From Centroscyllium fabricii (lineage: Eukaryota), in the NCBI GenBank assembly GCA_051313645.2, contig JBNRSN020000001.1, forward strand, positions 260,214,001-260,278,000: a stretch of 64,000 nucleotides of DNA, in the 5' to 3' direction. A program made the position numbers and the translations under genes. Positions within the stretch are counted from its first letter, which is position 1; the number at the start of each line of letters is the position of its first letter. Shown piece by piece: positions 1 to 61,539 of this stretch. Under the pieces are notes generated by a model, which did not search any database, was not told the origin of the DNA, and was given only the letters and a program-made list of their open reading frames with translations.

Positions 1-1254
1 AAGGCATTGCAACTAGCAGGACCACCAGCTACAACCCCCGGGGGAACGGGCAGGTAGAGAGAGAGAACGCCACGGTCTGGAAAGCCATCCAGTTAGCCCT
101 AAAGTCAAAAGACCTCCCAGTCACCCGATGGCAGGACGTCCTCCCTGAAGCACTCCACTCTATCCGGTCCCTATTGTGTACTGCCACTAACGCCACCCCT
201 CACGAAAGACTTTTTGCCTTCCCCAGGAAGTCAGCTTCCGGGACCTCGCTACCATCGTGGCTGCTATCTCCGGGACCGGTCCTGCTGCGGAAGCATGTGA
301 GGGGACACAAGGCAGATCCCCTAGTCGAACGGGTCCACCTCCTGCACGCCAATCCCCAGTACGCTTACATAACGTACCCCGACGGGAGGGAGGACACCGT
401 GTCCATAAAGGACCTAGCCCCAGCAGGGATCCCCAAAACCAGCCCGGCCAGGCAGCCCGAGCTCCCAAAACCCCCTGTGACGCCCCCCGAGCCACCGAAG
501 TCGAAGTACACGCTCCGACACGTGGGCCCAGTACCCCAGTATGTCCACAAGGCACCTGCGCGCAGCACGACCCAGCCCCAAGCCTGGATCCACAATGCGC
601 TCCCCCTAGAGCCAGAGGACGAAAGAGAGAGCGCGCCCCCTGCTGTCGAAATAAGGGCATCACCGCCACCCGGAAGTGACATAACCACCACCAGCCAACC
701 AGCAGAAAAGGAACAACCGACGCAACCAGCCACTCCACGACAACGAACACCACAGGCACCGCCAGCACGGCGAGCCACTCCACGACAACGAACACCACAG
801 GCACCACCAGCGCTGCGAAGATCAGCGCGGACAACGAAACCGCCTGAAAGACTAAACATATAGTCAAAAGAACATTAATTGTATATATTTCGTTAATGAG
901 CACCGTGTAATTAGTTGTTTTTTCTTTTTCCTTTTTGTACCCCCCGTGTGTTGTTCACCCCACCGTACTTTGGTTTTTAAAGAAGGGGTGAATGTGATAA
1001 ACTGTATATCACTGTAATACCATGTAACACCTGTATAGCACTGTAATACCATGTAACACCTGTATGAGATCCCAGGGACATACCTGGCGCCGCCCATGAC
1101 TCCTCCCCCACTGGAGGAGGTATATAAAGGACTGTCCCCATCCCCCGCACTATTCTGGGGACAGTCAGCTCGGTTGTGTATCTCTAACGTAGTTAATAAA
1201 AGCCTGATTATTATAACCTACTATTCGACTCCGAAGACGTTATTGACGGTTACA
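1..1254 (+). mobile_element. Gypsy LTR retrotransposon A, 3' part (integrase C-terminus, PPT, 3' LTR 993-1254); 5' part is outside the window
   Basis: Reading frame ends ...RRSARTTKPPERLNI at 863 and closely matches the integrase end of element B. PPT AAGAAGGGG ~980-988. LTR TGTGAT...GTTACA with TATATAA and AATAAAAGCC. Confidence 0.93.
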
Positions 1255-3533: not shown

Positions 3534-3812
3534 TGTGGTAAACCTGCGTTATACCACTGTCATGATACCATAATGTACCTGTAAATACCTGGCTATTAAC
3601 TCTGTACATACCTGTAAATACCTGACTGCAGGAGCTTGCCTCGGCTGACCCCGCCTCTGACTCCTCCTCTGGGTCTAGGTATATAGGTTGCTGCTTACCA
3701 TCCCCCGGTCAGTACTGCCCTGAGCTCAGCCAAGCCACGCTCCATTCTTTAGTAAATAAAAGCCTTTAGTTAAGGTAACTCTTCGTCTTTTAGTCTTATT
3801 GACGATACGTCA
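3534..3812 (+). mobile_element. Gypsy solo LTR
   Basis: TG...CA ends; 5-bp TSD AGTTG (3529-3533 / 3813-3817); TATATA and AATAAAAGCC; termini TGTGGTAA / GACGATACGTCA match element C LTR ends. Confidence 0.9.
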
Positions 3813-10300: not shown

Positions 10301-12003
10301 AACCTTAAGGGTTGAGAGGCCACAGGTAGTGTACTGGGGGTACCGCCTTGAGCCGCGGTTTCTGACCGTGAGTGAGGGAAGGGATCCGCCGAATGCCATC
10401 GTAACGCTCTGAAGGTGGCACTGAAAATCCAGTCCCAGGAGTAGGGGGGCGCAGAGCTGCGGCAGCATGTAAAAACTAAAGTCGTTAAACATTGCGCCCT
10501 GTACATTAAGCGTTACAATACAGCGCCCGGTGACGTCAGCGGATTCCGACTTGGACGCCATCGATATTCTCTGGCGCGCAGGGATTACTGTAAGGGAGAG
10601 GCGCTTTACAGTATTTTGGTGAATAAAACTTACTGTGCTCCCATTGTCGAACAGGCACACCACTTCTTCCCCGTTGACTTCCACCGGCATCATCGATTTC
10701 TCCAGTGGTTGAATCTTCCTCTGGTCTAGGCTCATGGATGCTAACACCGGGTCCTCCGAGTTGTCTTGATCCGGAGAGTAGTCCTCCAAGTCTGCTCCCC
10801 AAGATGGCTGCCACCATGTGTTGTGCTGTGGAGGTGGAGGCTGAGTCCAAGATGGCCGCTGTTGCTGCTGCTGCCACGAGGGCTGCTGAGTGGGGGATGG
10901 GTGAGCCCAATATGGCTGCTCCCCTGTTCCACATGCGGCGCTGCCCAGTTTGGATTTTGCGCTGGTGTTTTTACAAACCTTCGCATAATGTCCCTTCTTG
11001 TCGCATTTTGAGCAGGTCGCTTCTCTAGCAGGGCAGCTGCGTCTTGAGTGCTGAGGTTGTCCACAAAAGTAGCATTTAGCTTTAGCGTGGGCAGCTGTGA
11101 GTAATTCTTCTGCCGGTCGTTGCGCCAGTGCTGTCCAAGATTGCGGGGCTGGGCCCGTATAGTTACTTGAATATGAGGATAGGTCCATTGATGCGCTATC
11201 CAGCGCGTGCCCCAAGTCTGTAGTCGCCTGTAAGTCCTGGCCGTTCTGCTCCAGCAGTCTCTGCCTGGCATAGTCCGATTTTAGGCCTGTTACATAAGCG
11301 TCTCAGATGAGGCTCTCTACGTGGACTTGAGCCGTTTGCGCTCTGCAGTCACAGTCCCGTGCCAGAATTCTGAGGGCTCTTAGGAACTGCACACTTGACT
11401 CGTTATTTTGTTGCTTCCTGGTGGCGAGTATATGTCTCGCGTGGACTATGTTTGGTGCCCGATTATATTCCGTCTCGAGGATCCTGATGGCCTCTTGGAA
11501 CGATGGGGCGTCCACTATCATCGAGTACACTTGAGGGCCCACCCGGGCATGGAGGAGTCGCCGTTTTTGCTCCTCGGTCACTATGACCGCCGCGTTGGCT
11601 CTGATGTACCCTTCGAGCACGTTTCACCAGTGTGAGAAGGCGTTCGATGCTCCTGAAGATCGGGGATCAACTTCGAACACTGCTGGTTTAAGCATTGTGG
11701 TATCCATTTTACAGTAGTGAATAAAATTGTAACCTTCATTTACGTTCTCGGAGTCGAGTAGTAGATTAGAACAATCAGGCTTTTATTCACGACAGTTAGA
11801 TTACACACCAGCAAGCTGACTGTCCCCTGGAATGGCACGGGGGATGGGGGCAGTCACTTATATACCTCCTCCAGCCGGGGAGGAGTCGTGGGCGGAGCCG
11901 GGTATGTTCCAGGTATCATCTCGCAGTGGAATACAGTACAGGTATAGGTTACATGGTGATACATGGTGATTAGCTATATACAGTGATATACACGTTTATC
12001 ACA
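7334..12003 (-). mobile_element. Full-length Gypsy LTR retrotransposon B
   Basis: 276-bp LTRs 7334-7609 and 11728-12003 with ~5 substitutions; TSD ATTTC (7329-7333 / 12004-12008); PPT next to the 3' LTR. Confidence 0.97.
7715..11707 (-). pseudogene. Single-frame gag-pol of element B with two in-frame TGA stops in gag
   Basis: ATG at 11707 is in frame with the 1166-aa ORF. Domains: zinc knuckles (CYFCGQPQH..C, CSKCDKKGHYAKVC), protease LFDNGS, RT DLKSAYHQ and YLDN, RNase H SDASD, HHCC and DDE integrase. Stops at 11624-11626 and 11303-11305. Confidence 0.92.
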
Positions 12004-14729: not shown

Positions 14730-15187
14730 TTATTTACTTTTTATTCGTTGATGGGATGTGGGTGTCGCTGGCTGGCGAGGCCTGCATTTAGTGCCCATCC
14801 CTAATTGCCCTTGAGAAGATGGTGGTGAGCCGCCTTCTTGAACCGCTGCAGTCCATATGGTGTAGGTACACCCACAATGTTGCGTAGCGGTTGTTTACAA
14901 CTGAGTGGCTTGCTCGGCCATTTCAGAGGGCATTAAGAGTCAACCACATTGCTGTGGGTCTGGAGTCACATGTAGGCCAGACCAGGTAAGGATGGCAGAT
15001 TTCCTTCCCTGAAGCACATTAGTGAACCAGATGGGTTTTTGCAACAATCGACAATGGTATCATGGTCGCCATTACTAAGACTAACATTTAATTCAAATTC
15101 CACCAGCTGCCGTAGTGGGATTTGAACCCATGATCCTCTATGGCTTACTCGTCTAGTGACATAACCACTTCGCCACCGCCTCCCCCG
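14730..15187 (-). mobile_element. tRNA-derived SINE (family 2, LINE-derived tail)
   Basis: A/B-box head (GGTGGCGAAGTGG...GGTTCAAATCCC) on minus; homologous to 23166-23640. Confidence 0.85.
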
Positions 15188-15380
15188 GCAGGGGTTATGT
15201 CACTAGATTGACAGGGCTTGAGCTGCCGCCCCGTGATTGGCGGGGCTGTGTGAGTTTGCGATTGGAAAAGCGGAGGTTTCGGGTACGTTGCGATTGGTCG
15301 GACCTGAGCGGACGCCGAGCTGTGATTGGCGCGGCTGGGGTACCGCCGCGCTGTGATTGGCGAGACTGCACTGCCGCTCT

Positions 15381-15890
15381 GTGATTGGCGGGGCTGTGTG
15401 AGTTTGTGATTGGAGAAGTGGAGGTTTCGGTTATGCTGTGATTGGCGGAGCTGCGCTGTCGCTCTGTGATTGGCGGGGCTGTGTGAGTTTGTGATTGGAG
15501 AAGTGGAGGTTTCGGTTATGCTGTGATTGGCGGAGCTGCACTGTCGCTCTGTGATTGGCGGGGCTGTGTGAGTTTGCGATTGGAGAAGCGGAGGTTTCGG
15601 CGATGCTGTGATTGGCGGAGCTGCACTGCCGCTCCGTGATTGGCGGGGCTGTGTGAGTTTGCGATTGGAGAAGCGGAGGTTTCGGCGATGCTGTGATTGG
15701 CGGAGCTGCACTGCCGCTCCGTGATTGGCGGGGCTGTGTGAGTTTGCGATTGGAGAAGCGGGAGGTTTCGTTGATGCTGTGATTGGCGGAGCTGCACTGC
15801 CGCTCCGTGATTGGCGGGGCTATGGTGAGTTTGCGATTGGATAAGCGGGAGGTTTCGGCTATGCTGTGATTGGCGGGACTGCGCCGCCGC
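15381..15890. repeat. 85-bp tandem repeat x ~6, three ATTGG per unit
   Basis: Unit starts at 15381, 15466, 15551, 15636, 15721 and 15807. Confidence 0.92.
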
Positions 15891-15999
15891 GGCGCTGTGA
15901 GTGGTCAGGCCTGAGCGGACGCTGAGCTGTAATTGGTGGGGCTGCGCTGCCGCTCTGTGATTGGCGGGATTGTGTGATTGGAGAAGCTGGAGGTTTTGG

Positions 16000-16338
16000 G
16001 GCAGGCGGTGCCATTGGCTGGGGCAGGCGGTGCCATTGGCTGGGGCTGCGCTGCCATTGGCTGGGGCTGCGCTGCCATTGGCTGGGGCTGCGCTGCCATT
16101 GGCTGGGGCTGCGCTGCCATTGGCTGGGGCTGCGCTGCCATTGGCTGGGGCTGCGCTGCCATTGGCTGGGGCTGCGCTGCCATTGGCTGGGGCTGCGCTG
16201 CCATTGGCTGGGGCTGCGCTGCCATTGGCTGGGGCTGCGCTGCCATTGGCTGGGGCTGCGCTGCCATTGGCTGGGGCTGCGCTGCCATTGGCTGGGGCTG
16301 CGCTGCCATTGGCTGGGGCTGCGCTGCCATTGGCTGGG
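16000..16338. repeat. 21-bp tandem repeat (GCCATTGGCTGGGGCTGCGCT) x 14 plus two 22-bp variants
   Basis: Directly visible; the ORF track shows MAAQPQP 14 times. Confidence 0.95.
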
Positions 16339-16483
16339 TCCGGTCGGCAGGGAGACGGGAAGCGGTTGTCAGGGGCCGATTGCGGGAAGGCCGAGGAGGA
16401 GCGGACTCCGGCTCGGAGTGTCATCCCGCGGGGGAAGGAAGGGCGGAGAGACCGAGGCTGGTGGTTTCACCGTCGAGTGAAAA

Positions 16484-16588
16484 ATGGGCTGCCTGTTCTC
16501 CCGAAAATCCAAGGGGAAAAACCGAGGCGTCAAGGCCGCGGCGGCCGAGGAGGAGCCCAAGCAATACAGCTGGGACAAGCGGGAGAAG
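16484..16588 (+). CDS. RP2: RP2 (XRP2, ARL3 GTPase-activating protein) coding exon 1
   Basis: Translates MGCLFSRKSKGKNRGVKAAAAEEEPKQYSWDKREK, matching the vertebrate RP2 N-terminus (Gly2/Cys3 acylation motif; PKQYSWD.REK). GTAAG donor at 16589, phase 0. Confidence 0.95.
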
Positions 16589-16629
16589 GTAAGGTAAGGG
16601 CCGGGCTGGGCTCGGCCGGAGTGCCAGGC

Positions 16630-16870
16630 CCCCGGGGCAGGGGAGAGGGTGAGGGCCGGACCCCCGGGGCGGGGGAGAGGGTGAGGGCCGGACCCCCGGG
16701 GCGGGGGAGAGGGTGAGGGCCGGACCCCCGGGGCGGGGGAGAGGGTGAGGGCCGGACCCCCCGGGGCGGGGGAGAGGGCCGGACCCCCGGGGCGGGGGAG
16801 AGGGCCGGACCCCCGGGGCGGGGGAGAGGGCAGTCCCCGGGGGGAGAGAGCGCAGTCCCCGGGGGGATGC
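16630..16870. repeat. G-rich ~26-32 bp minisatellite at the start of intron 1
   Basis: Repeated GGGCCGGACCCCCGGGGCGGGGGAGAGGGTGA; GC boxes and G-runs on the sense strand. Confidence 0.85.
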
Positions 16871-17110
16871 CTCCCTGCCCTGCCCTGCCCCAGTGTTGAG
16901 CAATCCGGCTCTTCTCCCTCGGGCTGATTTCTTCATCTTCAAATCTGCAGAGAGAGAAATGTGCAGGTTGCTGTGACTATTTTATGAAGCAGTTACCTCG
17001 TTTGATAACTCTCCTACGAAGCGACTTGGGACGGTTAATTACATCAAAGGCACTAAATAAATGTAGGTAGTTGTTGCCTGAAAGAAATGCTGTAACTGCC
17101 ATATATATAA

Positions 17111-20413: not shown

Positions 20414-21105
20414 TGTGACCGAAATAACGACCTCGTGGACGAGTAGTGAGAAGGGTGAAACAATATGGCTTTTATTCGCTAAATGGTGGACATGCACCAG
20501 CTAGTTGACCGTCCCCAGGAATGGTCGGGGGATGGGAGATGGCCGCTTATATACCTCCTCCTGGGAGGGAGGAGTCGCGGGTGGGGCCAGCGTGGGCATG
20601 TCCAGGTAATCGCACGATAGGTTATGTACAACATGAATAATGGTACGATTACAGAGATACATATATATACATAACGGGGTGGGTATATACAAGGAAACAG
20701 TGGTTTACCACATTCACCCCTTCTTTAAAACAAAAGTCCGGCGGGGTGAACGCGACAGTTCTTTTCATTTACAAATTAAGTCGCTTCGGCGGCCTGGTGA
20801 TCCTGGTTGAGCGTCGCACCGCTGGTGGTGTCAGTGGTCGTGGAGTGGCCGGTCGGGTTGGTTGCATCGATGGTGATGATGCCGGTTGGCGAGCGGTGGT
20901 TGATAGCGTCGGTTGGTTTCTCGTTGGTGCCCTTGCAGTGACAGTAGGAGGCGCGCTCTCTCCTTCGTCGTCTGACTCTAGGGGGCATGTACTGTGGAGC
21001 CATGCTGGAGGCCATGCCGTGCTGCCCGCAGGTGCCGGGTGGACGTACCGGGGTGCTGGGTTCTCGTGCCGGGGAGCGTAACTTGGCGCCGGTGGCCATG
21101 TAGTT
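20414..21105 (-). mobile_element. Gypsy element D fragment: 3' LTR (20414-20712), PPT and pol C-terminal tail
   Basis: TG...CA LTR; TTCACCCCTTCTTT (PPT complement); minus frame ends RRSTRITRPPKRLNL; inserted into a SINE/CR1 tail (20332-20413). Confidence 0.85.
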
Positions 21106-43711: not shown

Positions 43712-46700
43712 TGACGTATCGTCAATATCTTCGATTAAAAGAGTCGACGAGTAGTTGCCGAAACTAAAGGCTTTTAATTGCTAAGAACGGAGCTACCCTC
43801 CAGAACGAACTACAGTACAGGAATGAAGGAGCCTCGGTCAGATCTCACCTATAACGGGGCCTCACCTGGGGGAGGAGTTGGAGGTGTGGCTGACCTGGCT
43901 CCCAACAGTGTCACAGTATACAGGGCTGTGCCTAACATCTGCACAGCCCATCATTAGCCATAATGGTACAGTGGTATAGTAGACATACAATGGTTACCAC
44001 ATTCACCCCTTCTTAAAAACTTTGAGTCCGGGGGGGGTGAATGGATCGAACAGTTCACGATAAGTCTGTCCGGCGGTCGTGTCTGCCTGGAGGACCGCCG
44101 GTGCTCCGGTGTTGGTGGTGGTGCCTCCTGGGTCGAATAGCCCACATCTGCCGGCGCTGTGACTTCAGGTGGCGGTGGGCTCGGCTGGTCCCCGCCGTCC
44201 GGGTCGTAGTCGGGGAAACTCAGGGGCCATCGTGCGTCTGGTGGTTGATCGGCCTGCTGGCCGGCCGGGGGCTCTGCGGTGGTGCTTCCTGCGGGAGCCA
44301 GGTCCCTGATGGACACGGTGTCCTCACGCCCGTCCGGGAACTGCACGAAGGCGTAGTGCGGGTTCGCGTGTAGGAGCTGTACCTTGTCCACCAGGGGGTC
44401 CGTCTTGTGGCTCCGGACATGCCTTCTAAGCAAAACCGGCCCCGGAGTCGTCAGCCATGGAGGAAGAGCTGTCCCCGAAGTCGACCTCCTGTTAAAAGAG
44501 AAAATCAGATCGTGCGGGGTGGCGTTAGTGGCAGTACATAAGAGAGAGCGTATAGAGTGCAGCGCGTCTGGGAGGACTGCCTGCCAATGGGACACTGGAA
44601 GGCCTCTGGACTTGAGAGCCAGGGTGACCGCCTTCCAGATAATCCCATTCTCCCTTTCTACCTGGCCGTTCCCCCGGGGGTTATAACTGGTCGTTCTGCT
44701 CGTGGCAACCCCTCTCTGGAGCAGAAACTGGCGCAGTTCATCGCTCATGAACGATGACCCCCGGTCGCTATGGATGTAGCTGGGGAGACCGAAAATGGCG
44801 AACAGCGCGGTGAAGTGTTTGATCACCGTTGCGCTCGTCATGTCTGGGCAGGGGAAGGCGAAGGGGAAGCGGGAGAACTCATCCACTACCGTGAGGAAGT
44901 ATGAGTTGCGGTCGGTGGAAGGGAGGGGGGCTTTGAAGTCCACGCTGAGACGTTCAAAGGGGCGGGTGGTCTTAATGAGGTGCGCCGTGTCTGGCCGGAA
45001 AAAGTGGGGTTTGCACTCGGCGCAGACAGGGCACTCTCGGGTCATAGCCTTGATCTCCGTGATGGAGTAGGGGAGGCTACGAGATTTAACGAAATGGGCG
45101 AGTCTGGTGACACCCGGGTGGCAAAGGCGGTCGTGGCGGTCCTTCAGCCGGTCTAGCTGGGCACTGGCGCACGGTCCCCTGGACAGTGCGTCCGGGGGTT
45201 CGTTGAGTTTGCCTGGTTGGTAAAGAATGTCGTACTCGTAAGTAGAGAGTTCGATCCGCCACCGCAGGATCTTATCATTCTTGATTTTACCCCGTTGTTT
45301 ATTGTTAAACATAAACGCCACCGACCGTTGGTCGGTGAGCAGGGTAAAACGCTTACCGGCCAGGTAATGACGCCAGTAGCGCACGGCCTCCACGATGGCC
45401 TGGGCCTCCTTTTCCACTGCTGAGTGGTGAGTTTCGGGTCCCTGTAAGGTGCGGGAGAAAAACGCTACGGGCCTGCCTGCCTGATTCAGGGTGGCAGCAA
45501 GGGCAAAGTCCGAAGCGTCGCTCTCCACCTGGAAAGGGATGGATTCATCAACAGCGAGCATGGTCGCCTTGATAATATCTTCCTTTATCCTTGCGAATGC
45601 CGTTTGGGCTTCTACAGAAAGGGGGAAGACGGCAGCCTTGAGGAGTGGTCTAGCCTTATCTGCGAACTGTGGGACCCATTGTGCATAATAGGAGAAAAAT
45701 CCTAGGCATCTCCTCAAGGCTTTGGGGTTGTGAGGTAGGGGCAGTTCTTGCAGGGGTCGCATACGCTGTGGGTCGGGGCCGAGGAGCCCGTTCTCCACCA
45801 CATATCCGAGGATGGCGAGCCGGTCTGTATTGAAGACGCATTTGTCCTTGTTATACGCAAGGTCCAGCTTGTCCGCCGTGGTGAGGAATTTGGCCAGATT
45901 GGCATCGTGGTCCTGCTGGTCGTGGCCGCAGATGGTCACGTTGTCCAGGTAAGGGAAAGTGGCCTGCAAGTCGTTTTGGTCAACCATACGGTCCATCTCT
46001 CGTTGGAACACTGACACTCCGTTGGTCATGCCAAAGGGGACCCGGAGGAAGTGGTAGAGCCGACCGTTCGCCTCGAAGGCGGTGTAGGGGCAGTCGGCTT
46101 TCCGAATCGGGAGCTGATGATACGCCGAATTAAGGTCGATCATAGAGAACACCTTGTACTGGGCGATCTGATTGACCATTTCCGAGATGCGGGGGAGGGG
46201 GGAGGCGTCGAGCCCGGTGTAGCGGTTGATAGTCTGGCTGTAATCGATAACCAGCCGCTGTTTTTCGCCAGACTTCACCACTGCAACTTGGGCGCGCCAG
46301 GGGCTGGTGCTGGCTTCAATTATCCCCTCCTTCAGCATCGGCCCGACCTCCGACCTGATAAACGTGCGATCCCCCTCACTGCACCGCCGACTCTTAGTGG
46401 CAATGGGTTTGCACTTCGGATCGAGGTTGGCGAAAAGCGAGGGGGGTTCGATTCTCAGGGTGGAGAGGCCGCAGACCGGGCTCCGCTTTGGGGGGGGATT
46501 GTCTCGGCTACTGACGATGAGGGGGGGTAAGGTCCCGCCGAACTCCATTGTCACGCTCCTGAAGTGGCACTGGAAATCCAAACCTAGTAAGGCTGGGGCA
46601 CACAACTGTTGGAGGGTATACAATTTAAAATTACGGTACACGCGCCCCTTGACGGTGAGCGTGACGGAGCAGTAGCCGGTGACGTCCGCGGTGTGGGACT

Positions 46701-48585
46701 GTGAAGCTAGGGAGACTTTGTAGTTGGTGGGCAGGACCTGCAGTCCGCAGCGCCGCACTGTATCAGGGTGAACGAAACTCTCAGTGCTGCCTGTGTCGAA
46801 AAGGCAGTCGACAGTGTGATTATTAATAGTAATCGGCATTATGGAGTTAGACAGGGTATGGGGCCTGCCCTGGCTAACTCTGATTCTGGCTGCCGCAGCC
46901 CCTGCTGATCAGGGCTGTGCACAAGATGGCGGCGCCCCTGGCTCGCACATGGAGGGGCCCGGGATACAAGATGGCGTCGCCCCTGGCTCGCGCATGGAGG
47001 GGCCCTGGATACAAGATGGCGTCGCCCCTGGCTCGCACATGGAGGGGCCCTGGATACAAGATGGCGTCGCCCCTGGCTCGCACATGGAGGGGCTCTGGTT
47101 ACAAAATGGCGTTTCCGAGGGGACGCACACGGTGGGGCCCTGTGAAGGCGCTGGCGGCGCCCGTGATTCGCACGCAGCGAACCGCGGTGATCGGGTTGGC
47201 GGTGCCCGTGATTCGCACGCAGCGGGCCGCGGTGGTCGGGTTGGCGGTGCCCGTGATTCGCATGCAGCGGGCCGCGGTGGTCGGGTTGGCGGTGCCCGTG
47301 ATTCGCACGCAGCCGGCCGCGTTGGGGGGTCGCGCTTGGCCGGCCTTTGCCGCATCGGGGTGGGGGATGGGGGCGCTTGTTGTCTACCCCCGTACCGTCG
47401 CTGGATCGCGCTGCTGTTGCAGCTTACCTGGTGTCTGTCGGTGCTCTCACAGGCTGCACTGTTGTACCTTGAGTTGGGCGCTGCTGGAGCTGATCTGCAG
47501 GCTTTAGCGTAGTGTCCCTTCTTCGCACATTTCTCGCAGGTCGCCGTCCTGGCTGGGCATTTCGCTCTTGGGTGCAGTCCCTGGCTGCAGAAGTAGCAGC
47601 GCTTGTCTTTAGTGGCCGTCGCGGCCATCGTGGGGGCCTCGGCCTGTTGCGCCCAGGCCTGGGCCTGTTGTGGCGCGGCCCATATGTTGTAGGCTTGCGG
47701 GTTAGTGCCGCTGTACGCCTGTAACTTGCTTCGGGCCCCCTCTACTGATTTGGCTATCTTAGTCGCCTCCTCGAGGGATAATTCGTCTTTCTCTAGTAGC
47801 CGCTGGCGGGCTTCCACACACCTCAGTCCTGTAACATAAGCGTCCCGAACAAGGAGTTTTTCCTCCTCTTCAACTGTTGTGCCTTTGCAGCCACAGACCC
47901 GTACCAGGGCCAGGAGCGCTTGCTCGAACTCCTCATTGGACTCACCCGGTAGCTGAGATCTGGTCGCCAGCACATGTCGGGCGTAGACTGAATGGACCGG
48001 GCGCTCGTAACATTTCTTCAGAATTTGTACAGCCGATACGTAGGATGAGGCGTTCCTGATGAGGGTGAATACCCTGCTGGAGATCCTCGATCGTAGGACA
48101 TGCAGCTTGTTCCTGTCCGTTGTAGCCTTGGCGGCGTCCATGTAGGCCTCCAGGAGGCCGAACCAGTGTTCGTACGTGGCGGCAGCGGCATGGTCCTGGG
48201 GACTGATGTCCAGCTTCTCAGGTTTAACTGCGCTGCTCTCCATTTTAAAAATAATTAGCAATTAAAATTGACGTATCGTCAATATTTTCGATTAAAAGAG
48301 TCGACGAGTAGTTGCCGAAACTAAAGGCTTTTAATTGCTAAGAACGGAGCTACCCTCCAGAACGAACTACAGTACAGGAATGAAGGAGCCTCGGTCAGAT
48401 CTCACCTATAACGGGGCCTCACCTGGGGGAGGAGTTGGTGTGGCTGACCTGGCTCCCAACAGTGTCACAGTATACAGGGCTGTGCCTAACATCTGCACAG
48501 TATACAGGGCTGTGCCTAACATCTGCACAGCCCATCATTAGCCATAATGGTACAGTGGTATAGTAGACATACAATGGTTACCACA
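43712..48585 (-). mobile_element. Full-length Gypsy LTR retrotransposon C (RP2 intron 2, antisense)
   Basis: LTRs 43712-44001 and 48269-48585 differ by a 30-bp duplication, a 3-bp indel and ~1 substitution; TSD TCTAG; PPT present. Confidence 0.97.
43954..48243 (-). pseudogene. gag-pol of element C; one in-frame TGA (46909-46911) just before the protease
   Basis: Gag MESSAVKPEKL with two zinc knuckles; pol LFDTGS, YLDN, SDASD, HHCC and DDE; gag and pol are in the same frame. Confidence 0.9.
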
Positions 48586-61277: not shown

Positions 61278-61539
61278 TGTGGTAATCCTGTAATACTGTT
61301 TACCACCACTGTTATACTGTGCTGTATATCGTTACCTCTTGTCCCACTGTATCTACCTGGGATGTCTCTGCCGGCTCCGCCCCCAGGCTCCACCCACAGG
61401 CTGTGGTATAAAGGTGGCAGCCCTGCTGACCCCTGACATTTCAGGACCAGATAGTGGTGAGACCTGTACTTCAGTTCTTTTGTTAATAAAAGCCTTGATT
61501 ACCTAATTCTGTCGATTAGCTTTAATTGATCGTGCATCA
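61278..61539 (+). mobile_element. Gypsy solo LTR, sense to RP2
   Basis: TG...CA ends, TSD AGGAT, TATAAA ~61408, AATAAAAGCC ~61485. Confidence 0.88.

Follow-up and report, generated by a model that had tools for sequence, protein, structure and literature searches.

Pairing between the LTR and the leader likely serves self-primed reverse transcription in a compact, chromodomain-less lineage of animal Gypsy elements

Element C, a Gypsy retrotransposon in a 64,000-nucleotide stretch of Centroscyllium fabricii DNA (hereafter the window, to which coordinates refer), carries one base behind its 5' LTR a sequence that pairs perfectly with a segment of the LTR itself, and we consider it very probable that this pairing, which recurs in most families of the lineage, serves self-primed reverse transcription. 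Self-priming is the best reading because the helix lies where minus-strand synthesis starts, the 3' end of its LTR strand points into U5 and the tRNA site has been replaced. The mechanism is already known from Tf1, and the C lineage would use a different form of it: judged by its sequence, element C would work like a Tf1/sushi self-primer, but it falls outside that group.

Element C lies on the minus strand and reads 5' LTR, 25-nt leader, gag, pol, polypurine tract and 3' LTR. When aligned, the 5' LTR (48269..48585; TGT..TCA, 317 nt) and the 3' LTR (43712..44001) differ by one substitution, a 30-nt tandem duplication and a 3-nt indel, and the element is flanked by the target duplication CTAGA. 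The gag gene (46909..48243), which encodes a CCHC knuckle, carries a stop codon in frame (TGA, 46911-46909); in other family copies, frames of more than 1,400 aa are open. Pfam places protease, reverse transcriptase (RT, with a YLDN motif), RNase H and integrase in pol (43954..46908), and the polypurine tract AAGAAGGGGTGAA (44002..44014) is identical in the window's elements B and D. The TG..CA LTRs, short target duplication, polypurine tract and protease-RT-RNase H-integrase order are those of Ty3/Gypsy elements, and the best solved relative is the Ty3 Gag-Pol (E 3.6e-61). At least 150 near-identical copies of family C are present in the element's own genome (7.2 Gb). The C gag also contains 45-nt tandem repeats (46820-47320, repeat family D9), which encode Pro/Cys-rich units.

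The leader arm TTTTAATTGCTAA (48267-48255, minus strand) occupies the position of a primer-binding site. It begins at +2 after the LTR-terminal CA, in an element whose LTR end is fixed independently by the 3' and solo LTRs, and the intervening A (48268) is unpaired. Its perfect complement is TTAGCAATTAAAA in the 5' LTR (48341-48329), the predicted 3' end of the self-primer; a second copy of this arm sits in the 3' LTR (43784-43772). For a 13-nt match from a fixed start to any place in the C LTR, the chance expectation is ~4e-6. Directly after the 5' arm stands the tetranucleotide RCCT (48325..48328; GCCT in C), which marks the predicted cut, before 48328, and the start of a second stem. On re-reading the sequence, we recovered what the initial annotation had described: a leader without TGG that ends at the gag ATG (48243), a perfect 13-nt complement of an LTR segment that includes the signal ATTAAA, and, relative to element B, changes on both strands, which fall at helix positions 6, 8 and 9.

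The window contains five other related LTR types. Element B (11717..11790, minus strand; arm 11790-11781, LTR end 11728, leader arm 11726-11717) pairs over 10 bp with its own 5' LTR and over 11 bp with its own 3' LTR; its gag has two in-frame stops (11628-11626 and one further on), and the copies of B and C are both decayed. LTR A (993..1254, plus strand) is the 3' LTR of an element that runs past the window start, LTR D (20414..20712, minus strand) is that of a truncated element, and two solo LTRs lie on the plus strand at 3534..3812 and 61278..61539. The motif A(A/T)TAAAAGCC, earlier named as common to the six LTR types, is indeed in all of them, but it also occurs twice outside LTRs (3117 and 21964), in repeat family D10. 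Its four-A arm end holds for the LTR types of the window but does not extend to the wider lineage, where many families read TAAA^GCC or TAAA^ACC and one reads GAAGA^GCC. ARAGORN detected no tRNA over the window. Elsewhere in it (15100-16900) is a cluster of GC-rich tandem arrays, whose repeat units measure 85, 21 and 32 nt.

To survey the lineage, gag starts were gathered blind to the leader. The host genome was queried with gag (three queries) and with the LTR alone (two queries) and was sampled in 40 unselected 10-kb stretches; metagenome contigs supplied the rest. The window loci (L001, L195 and L225), a duplicate end of L052 and gag starts with less than 90 nt upstream were excluded from the counts, which left 155 junctions, 123 from the host and 32 from metagenomes. 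Grouped at 80% gag DNA identity, they form 29 families (14 host, 15 metagenomic); as the families share ancestry, family counts are not counts of independent events. The initial annotation had made its proposal depend on complementarity in further families, and at least 10 perfect bp starting at +2 after CA are present in 26/29 families, so that the idea of a selected LTR-leader pairing with compensatory changes is supported well beyond the two families on which it was built. Copy by copy, such a helix is found at offset 1 in 121/155 junctions and at offset 0 in 8/155. Shuffles given equal search freedom never reached 10 bp (0/1,160), and the 21 of 812 cross-family pairs that did so all join families with similar arms. 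Of the three families that fall short, one is represented by a truncated contig and the other two by single copies whose 13-15-bp helix has one internal mismatch. The family's own LTR is strictly the best partner of the leader in 23/29 families. Each 3' or solo LTR compared ended at the CA that precedes the leader arm, while for about nine metagenomic families, represented by a single LTR, the position of the CA was taken by analogy. In the 27 families tabulated below (family 7, truncated, and family 25, which shares its LTR with family 24, are excluded), a TGG primer site near the LTR end is absent throughout (27/27). A search of viral contigs found no relative, and Rfam returned only a chance match (E 0.24, far below the cut-off).

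The pairing could also be predicted. From the two solo LTRs (3534 and 61278), the expected leaders were written down before any locus was read. The queries gave 58 non-self matches, of which 20 were followed by gag, and in 19 of these 20 the leader matches the prediction over at least 12 nt, the twentieth having a single mismatch (10/11 gag-followed copies for the LTR at 3534 and 9/9 for that at 61278). None of the 38 loci without a following gag carries the complement after the LTR. The queries held one to three flanking bases, which favours A at +1 but not the predicted arm; a gag match at L195 proved to be a false match on the window copy and was left uncounted.

Close inspection of the helix reveals a sharply defined geometry. 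Over positions 1-13, 345 of 351 pairs in the 27 families are Watson-Crick and none is G-U, in a table that leans towards Watson-Crick pairs because the family representatives were picked by their modal perfect helix; at position 0 (the base at +1) no family has a Watson-Crick pair (0/27). The arm is mostly 13-14 nt long (range 10-18) and lies 23-60 nt from the LTR end. Pairing with covariation reaches position 13 in 25/27 families, position 14 in 17/27 and positions 15-16 in 13/27, and two families pair over just 10-11 bp. Within families, where the modal-helix bias does not apply (10 families, 125/132 copies kept), every one of the 31 two-sided changes preserves Watson-Crick pairing, with a concentration at positions 7-11; one of them (L097) is a chance call in a disrupted copy. 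The 44 one-sided changes (40 mismatches, 4 G-U) all occur in haplotypes seen once, as would be expected of decay after insertion. Two full-length elements, L039 and L033, carry a variant arm in both LTRs that is matched in the leader. Minimum free energy folding recovers the helix in 8/8 elements, with z-scores from -1.2 to -5.0.

The bases that follow the arm are conserved as R-C-C-T (R 26, C 26, C 24 and T 24 of 27 families). A second stem of at least 4 bp opens at RCC in 19/27 families (shuffle mean 6.8, maximum 13) and measures just 2-3 bp in the other 8, including element C (3 bp). In 9/27 families the partner of this stem lies no more than 8 nt from the LTR end; the comparison with the Tf1 'pretzel' covered this duplex.

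Two other groups of elements in the same genome served as controls. Six TGG-site elements of another Gypsy lineage, CsRN1-like by its RT motifs, read CA-N-TGGTGACC, a tRNA-type site, and their LTR complement is at most 8 bp. The second group was found through the SH3_Tf2-1 domain (10 of 18 regions, without an LTR pair, were dropped), and its members, one of which has a chromodomain (L259, 36.3 bits), are presumed to be of sushi type from their domains and RT motifs. Among the eight with both LTRs, CA plus 1 nt is followed by an 11-bp complement in four, by 9 bp in one and by at most 7 bp in three, and in eight loci (L267-L281) the 11-nt arm starts exactly 30 nt after a TATA-like box. By its sequence this layout is the described Tf1/sushi arrangement, which makes the one-base gap, shared with the C lineage, the geometry of a self-primer site.

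In the mechanism that we propose, the RNA would fold so that the arm pairs with the site directly behind the 5' LTR, and a nuclease, probably the element's own RNase H as in Tf1, would cut between the arm's last A and RCC. This gives a predicted cut point, A^RCC, with single-base precision. The new 3'-OH at the arm end would then be extended into U5. Going by the TATA spacing of the host families, the primer would be a 5' fragment of ~55 nt with just its last 13-14 nt paired. Plus-strand synthesis might, as a weaker step, copy the primer back into the site. If so, compensation would be automatic, and the covariation without G-U pairs may come partly from primer copying, beyond selection on structure alone. 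The absence of G-U pairs suggests such copying, as in HIV and MLV, but the step is a weak one because Ty1 and Ty3 are reported without it (PMC7472051, section 4.3).

Where the primer would begin separates this scheme from one in which self-priming follows Tf1 exactly, with transcription starting at the arm (position 11, AG) and the first 11-13 nt acting as primer; as a sub-case of self-priming we regard this as possible, though doubtful. Position 11 is A in 22/27 families and position 10 is G in 25/27, TTAGT resembles an initiator, and two families have a helix of just 10-11 bp. In Tf1, pairing with the site involves the first 11 bases, and RNase H cleaves after base 11 (PMC7175516). However, a TATA-like box 30 nt before the arm is present in 0/27 families, and covarying pairing runs beyond the expected start, to position 13 in nearly all families and to position 16 in about half. 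In C and six host families, a TATA-like box lies instead 71-74 nt upstream of arm position 11, and two more families have it at 84-94 nt; most metagenomic families have no TATA match. In C the box, recognized by sequence and with a presumed function, is TTATAGG (48405..48411, 72 nt before arm position 11), and an initiator-like TTCATTCC (48377..48384) 30 nt downstream of it contains the predicted transcription start near 48381. Set against the 30 nt of the sushi-type control, this spacing suggests that the primer would be the end of an internal fragment. The RNA 5' end, whose use as primer defines Tf1, would then probably not serve as primer here.

A second version of self-priming would use the arm copy of the 3' LTR, in an RNA closed into a circle, whose end would be brought to the arm's last A by cutting or trimming. 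Both LTRs carry the arm, DNA sequence alone cannot separate the two copies, and pairing past any start site would then be unrestricted. Nevertheless, the 5' arm is near the site (23-60 nt) and wins in local folds, and the literature searched offers no precedent for the circular route, which we therefore rate as improbable.

It is still less likely that the helix does nothing but mask the poly(A) signal of the 5' LTR while something else primes. The signal A(A/T)TAAA is held by 20/27 arms, of which it is the most conserved part, and the partner exists only behind the 5' LTR, as 5'-specific suppression requires. Yet 7/27 arms lack it (one ends TGAAGA), and in two of these seven a signal lies free in the loop, so poly(A) control is not the shared function. 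Masking, moreover, needs neither a start fixed at +2 nor a complete lack of G-U pairs, and on its own it would leave the element without any primer site. In the 20 families whose arm contains the signal the helix would also hide it, and masking is plausible as a second use beside self-priming. Thus, of the two uses hinted at in the initial annotation, tRNA-free priming fits the position of the helix, its inner end and the missing tRNA site, while poly(A) control does not stand as the function common to the lineage.

Priming by a host RNA, such as an internal tRNA fragment or another small RNA, with the LTR match as a by-product, has a parallel in some Copia lineages, for which half-tRNA priming without TGG is known (PMC6317226), but we judge it highly unlikely: a host primer would impose one fixed sequence, and the site instead varies in step with each family's own LTR, its strictly best partner in most families. 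A chance AT-rich match, or a structure acting at the DNA level or in translation, has next to no probability; for all that the arms are AT-rich and the folding z-scores modest for B (-1.2, -1.7) and one other family, the shuffles and the blind prediction refute chance.

Self-priming in the C lineage can be extended into a joint reading in which it arose apart from Tf1/sushi, the primer is cut from within R where the poly(A) signal ends, the helix also blocks premature polyadenylation, and primer copying permits paired drift, all of this across animal phyla. We offer this combination tentatively and would sooner expect one of its parts to fail than all of them to hold.

Element C belongs, by its sequence, to a compact, chromodomain-less lineage of animal Gypsy elements: neither a Chromo nor an SH3_Tf2-1 hit was obtained in B, C or six long homologs. 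Named protein relatives, recognized at the protein level only, come from rays, a catshark, cnidarians and Trichuris, the closest being those of elasmobranchs. An RT-RNase H tree was built from 34 rows, none of them a named Tf1 or sushi sequence (2 of 21 clade rows were dropped as too short a match). Its 19 clade rows group on a single branch (100/100), apart from the eight sushi-type rows, which make up another (100/100). A sister grouping with the sushi-type rows was not rejected (AU p 0.196), and an independent origin is thus not shown. The RT motif of the lineage is YLDN, YMDN, YIDN or YVDN rather than YxDD in B, C (~45947-45936) and 95 of 120 homologs; YLDD is retained in one host family that has the helix. 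We found no report of YLDN together with reverse transcriptase in the open literature. Surveys of mollusc and annelid Gypsy clades do not treat primer sites in their main text (PMC6238403, PMC8556966); PMC6238403 gives names and accessions for clade terms, with no match to the RT motif.

The closest known systems are Tf1/Tf2 of Schizosaccharomyces pombe, Tj1 and the Tf1/sushi group, which, like the C lineage, have no tRNA site and a post-LTR site that complements their own LTR. The Tf1 primer sits within a three-duplex structure, the 'pretzel', with a further duplex directly after the primer (bioRxiv 2022.12.06.519325); in 19/27 families of the C lineage a stem of at least 4 bp opens directly after the arm. 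In contrast, RT-RNase H is just ~27-30% identical between Tf1/sushi and the C lineage, the arm is mostly 13-14 nt instead of the 11 nt of the sushi-type copies and overlaps the poly(A) signal, and it stands ~72 nt rather than 30 nt after the TATA-like box. Self-priming has been predicted from LTR complementarity in plant lineages, namely Tcn1 (Gypsy) and TAR, Houba and Osr-1 (Copia) (PMC6317226), but Tcn1 is a chromovirus and TAR a Copia element, unlike the C lineage. Fungal GalEa elements have a conserved hairpin site (CHS) in place of a tRNA site; they are Copia elements, their site is palindromic and the authors found no LTR complement (PMC5445492).

Base-pairing conceals a poly(A) signal in HIV-1, where a hairpin hides AAUAAA in the 5' LTR transcript. 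That hairpin is local, lies inside R and belongs to a tRNA-primed virus, whereas the partner in C is outside the LTR, at the primer site.

Self-priming has already been described in Tf1/sushi, in Tcn1 and, among Copia elements, in the TAR lineage (PMC6317226, PMC4600332, PMC5341516, PMC3601003, PMC5445492). For non-chromovirus animal Gypsy elements we found no report in the open literature; subscription journals and Repbase, which lay outside the search, may hold one. If the reading is correct, tRNA-free priming extends from chromoviruses to a very abundant non-chromovirus lineage, whose elements would need no host tRNA and would escape silencing by tRNA fragments at the primer site (such silencing is described in PMC7472051). 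Annotation tools based on the primer-binding site would miss elements of the C lineage.

In the copy L187 (1460-1500), the end of the LTR and the leader arm have undergone inversion in place, and in the 5' LTR of L108 the reverse complement of the arm stands directly behind it, perhaps a footprint of snap-back during reverse transcription. At L102, L120 and several other loci, elements of the lineage are nested in one another's LTRs, and in L102 an LTR of the type found at 3534 is inserted inside the arm. Finally, LTR A (1128-1168) and the matching part of the B LTRs contain an inverted repeat of up to 11 bp that straddles the predicted start site and would form only in the 3' LTR transcript, just upstream of the poly(A) signal; family 23 (L194) has a 14-bp inverted repeat at the corresponding place.
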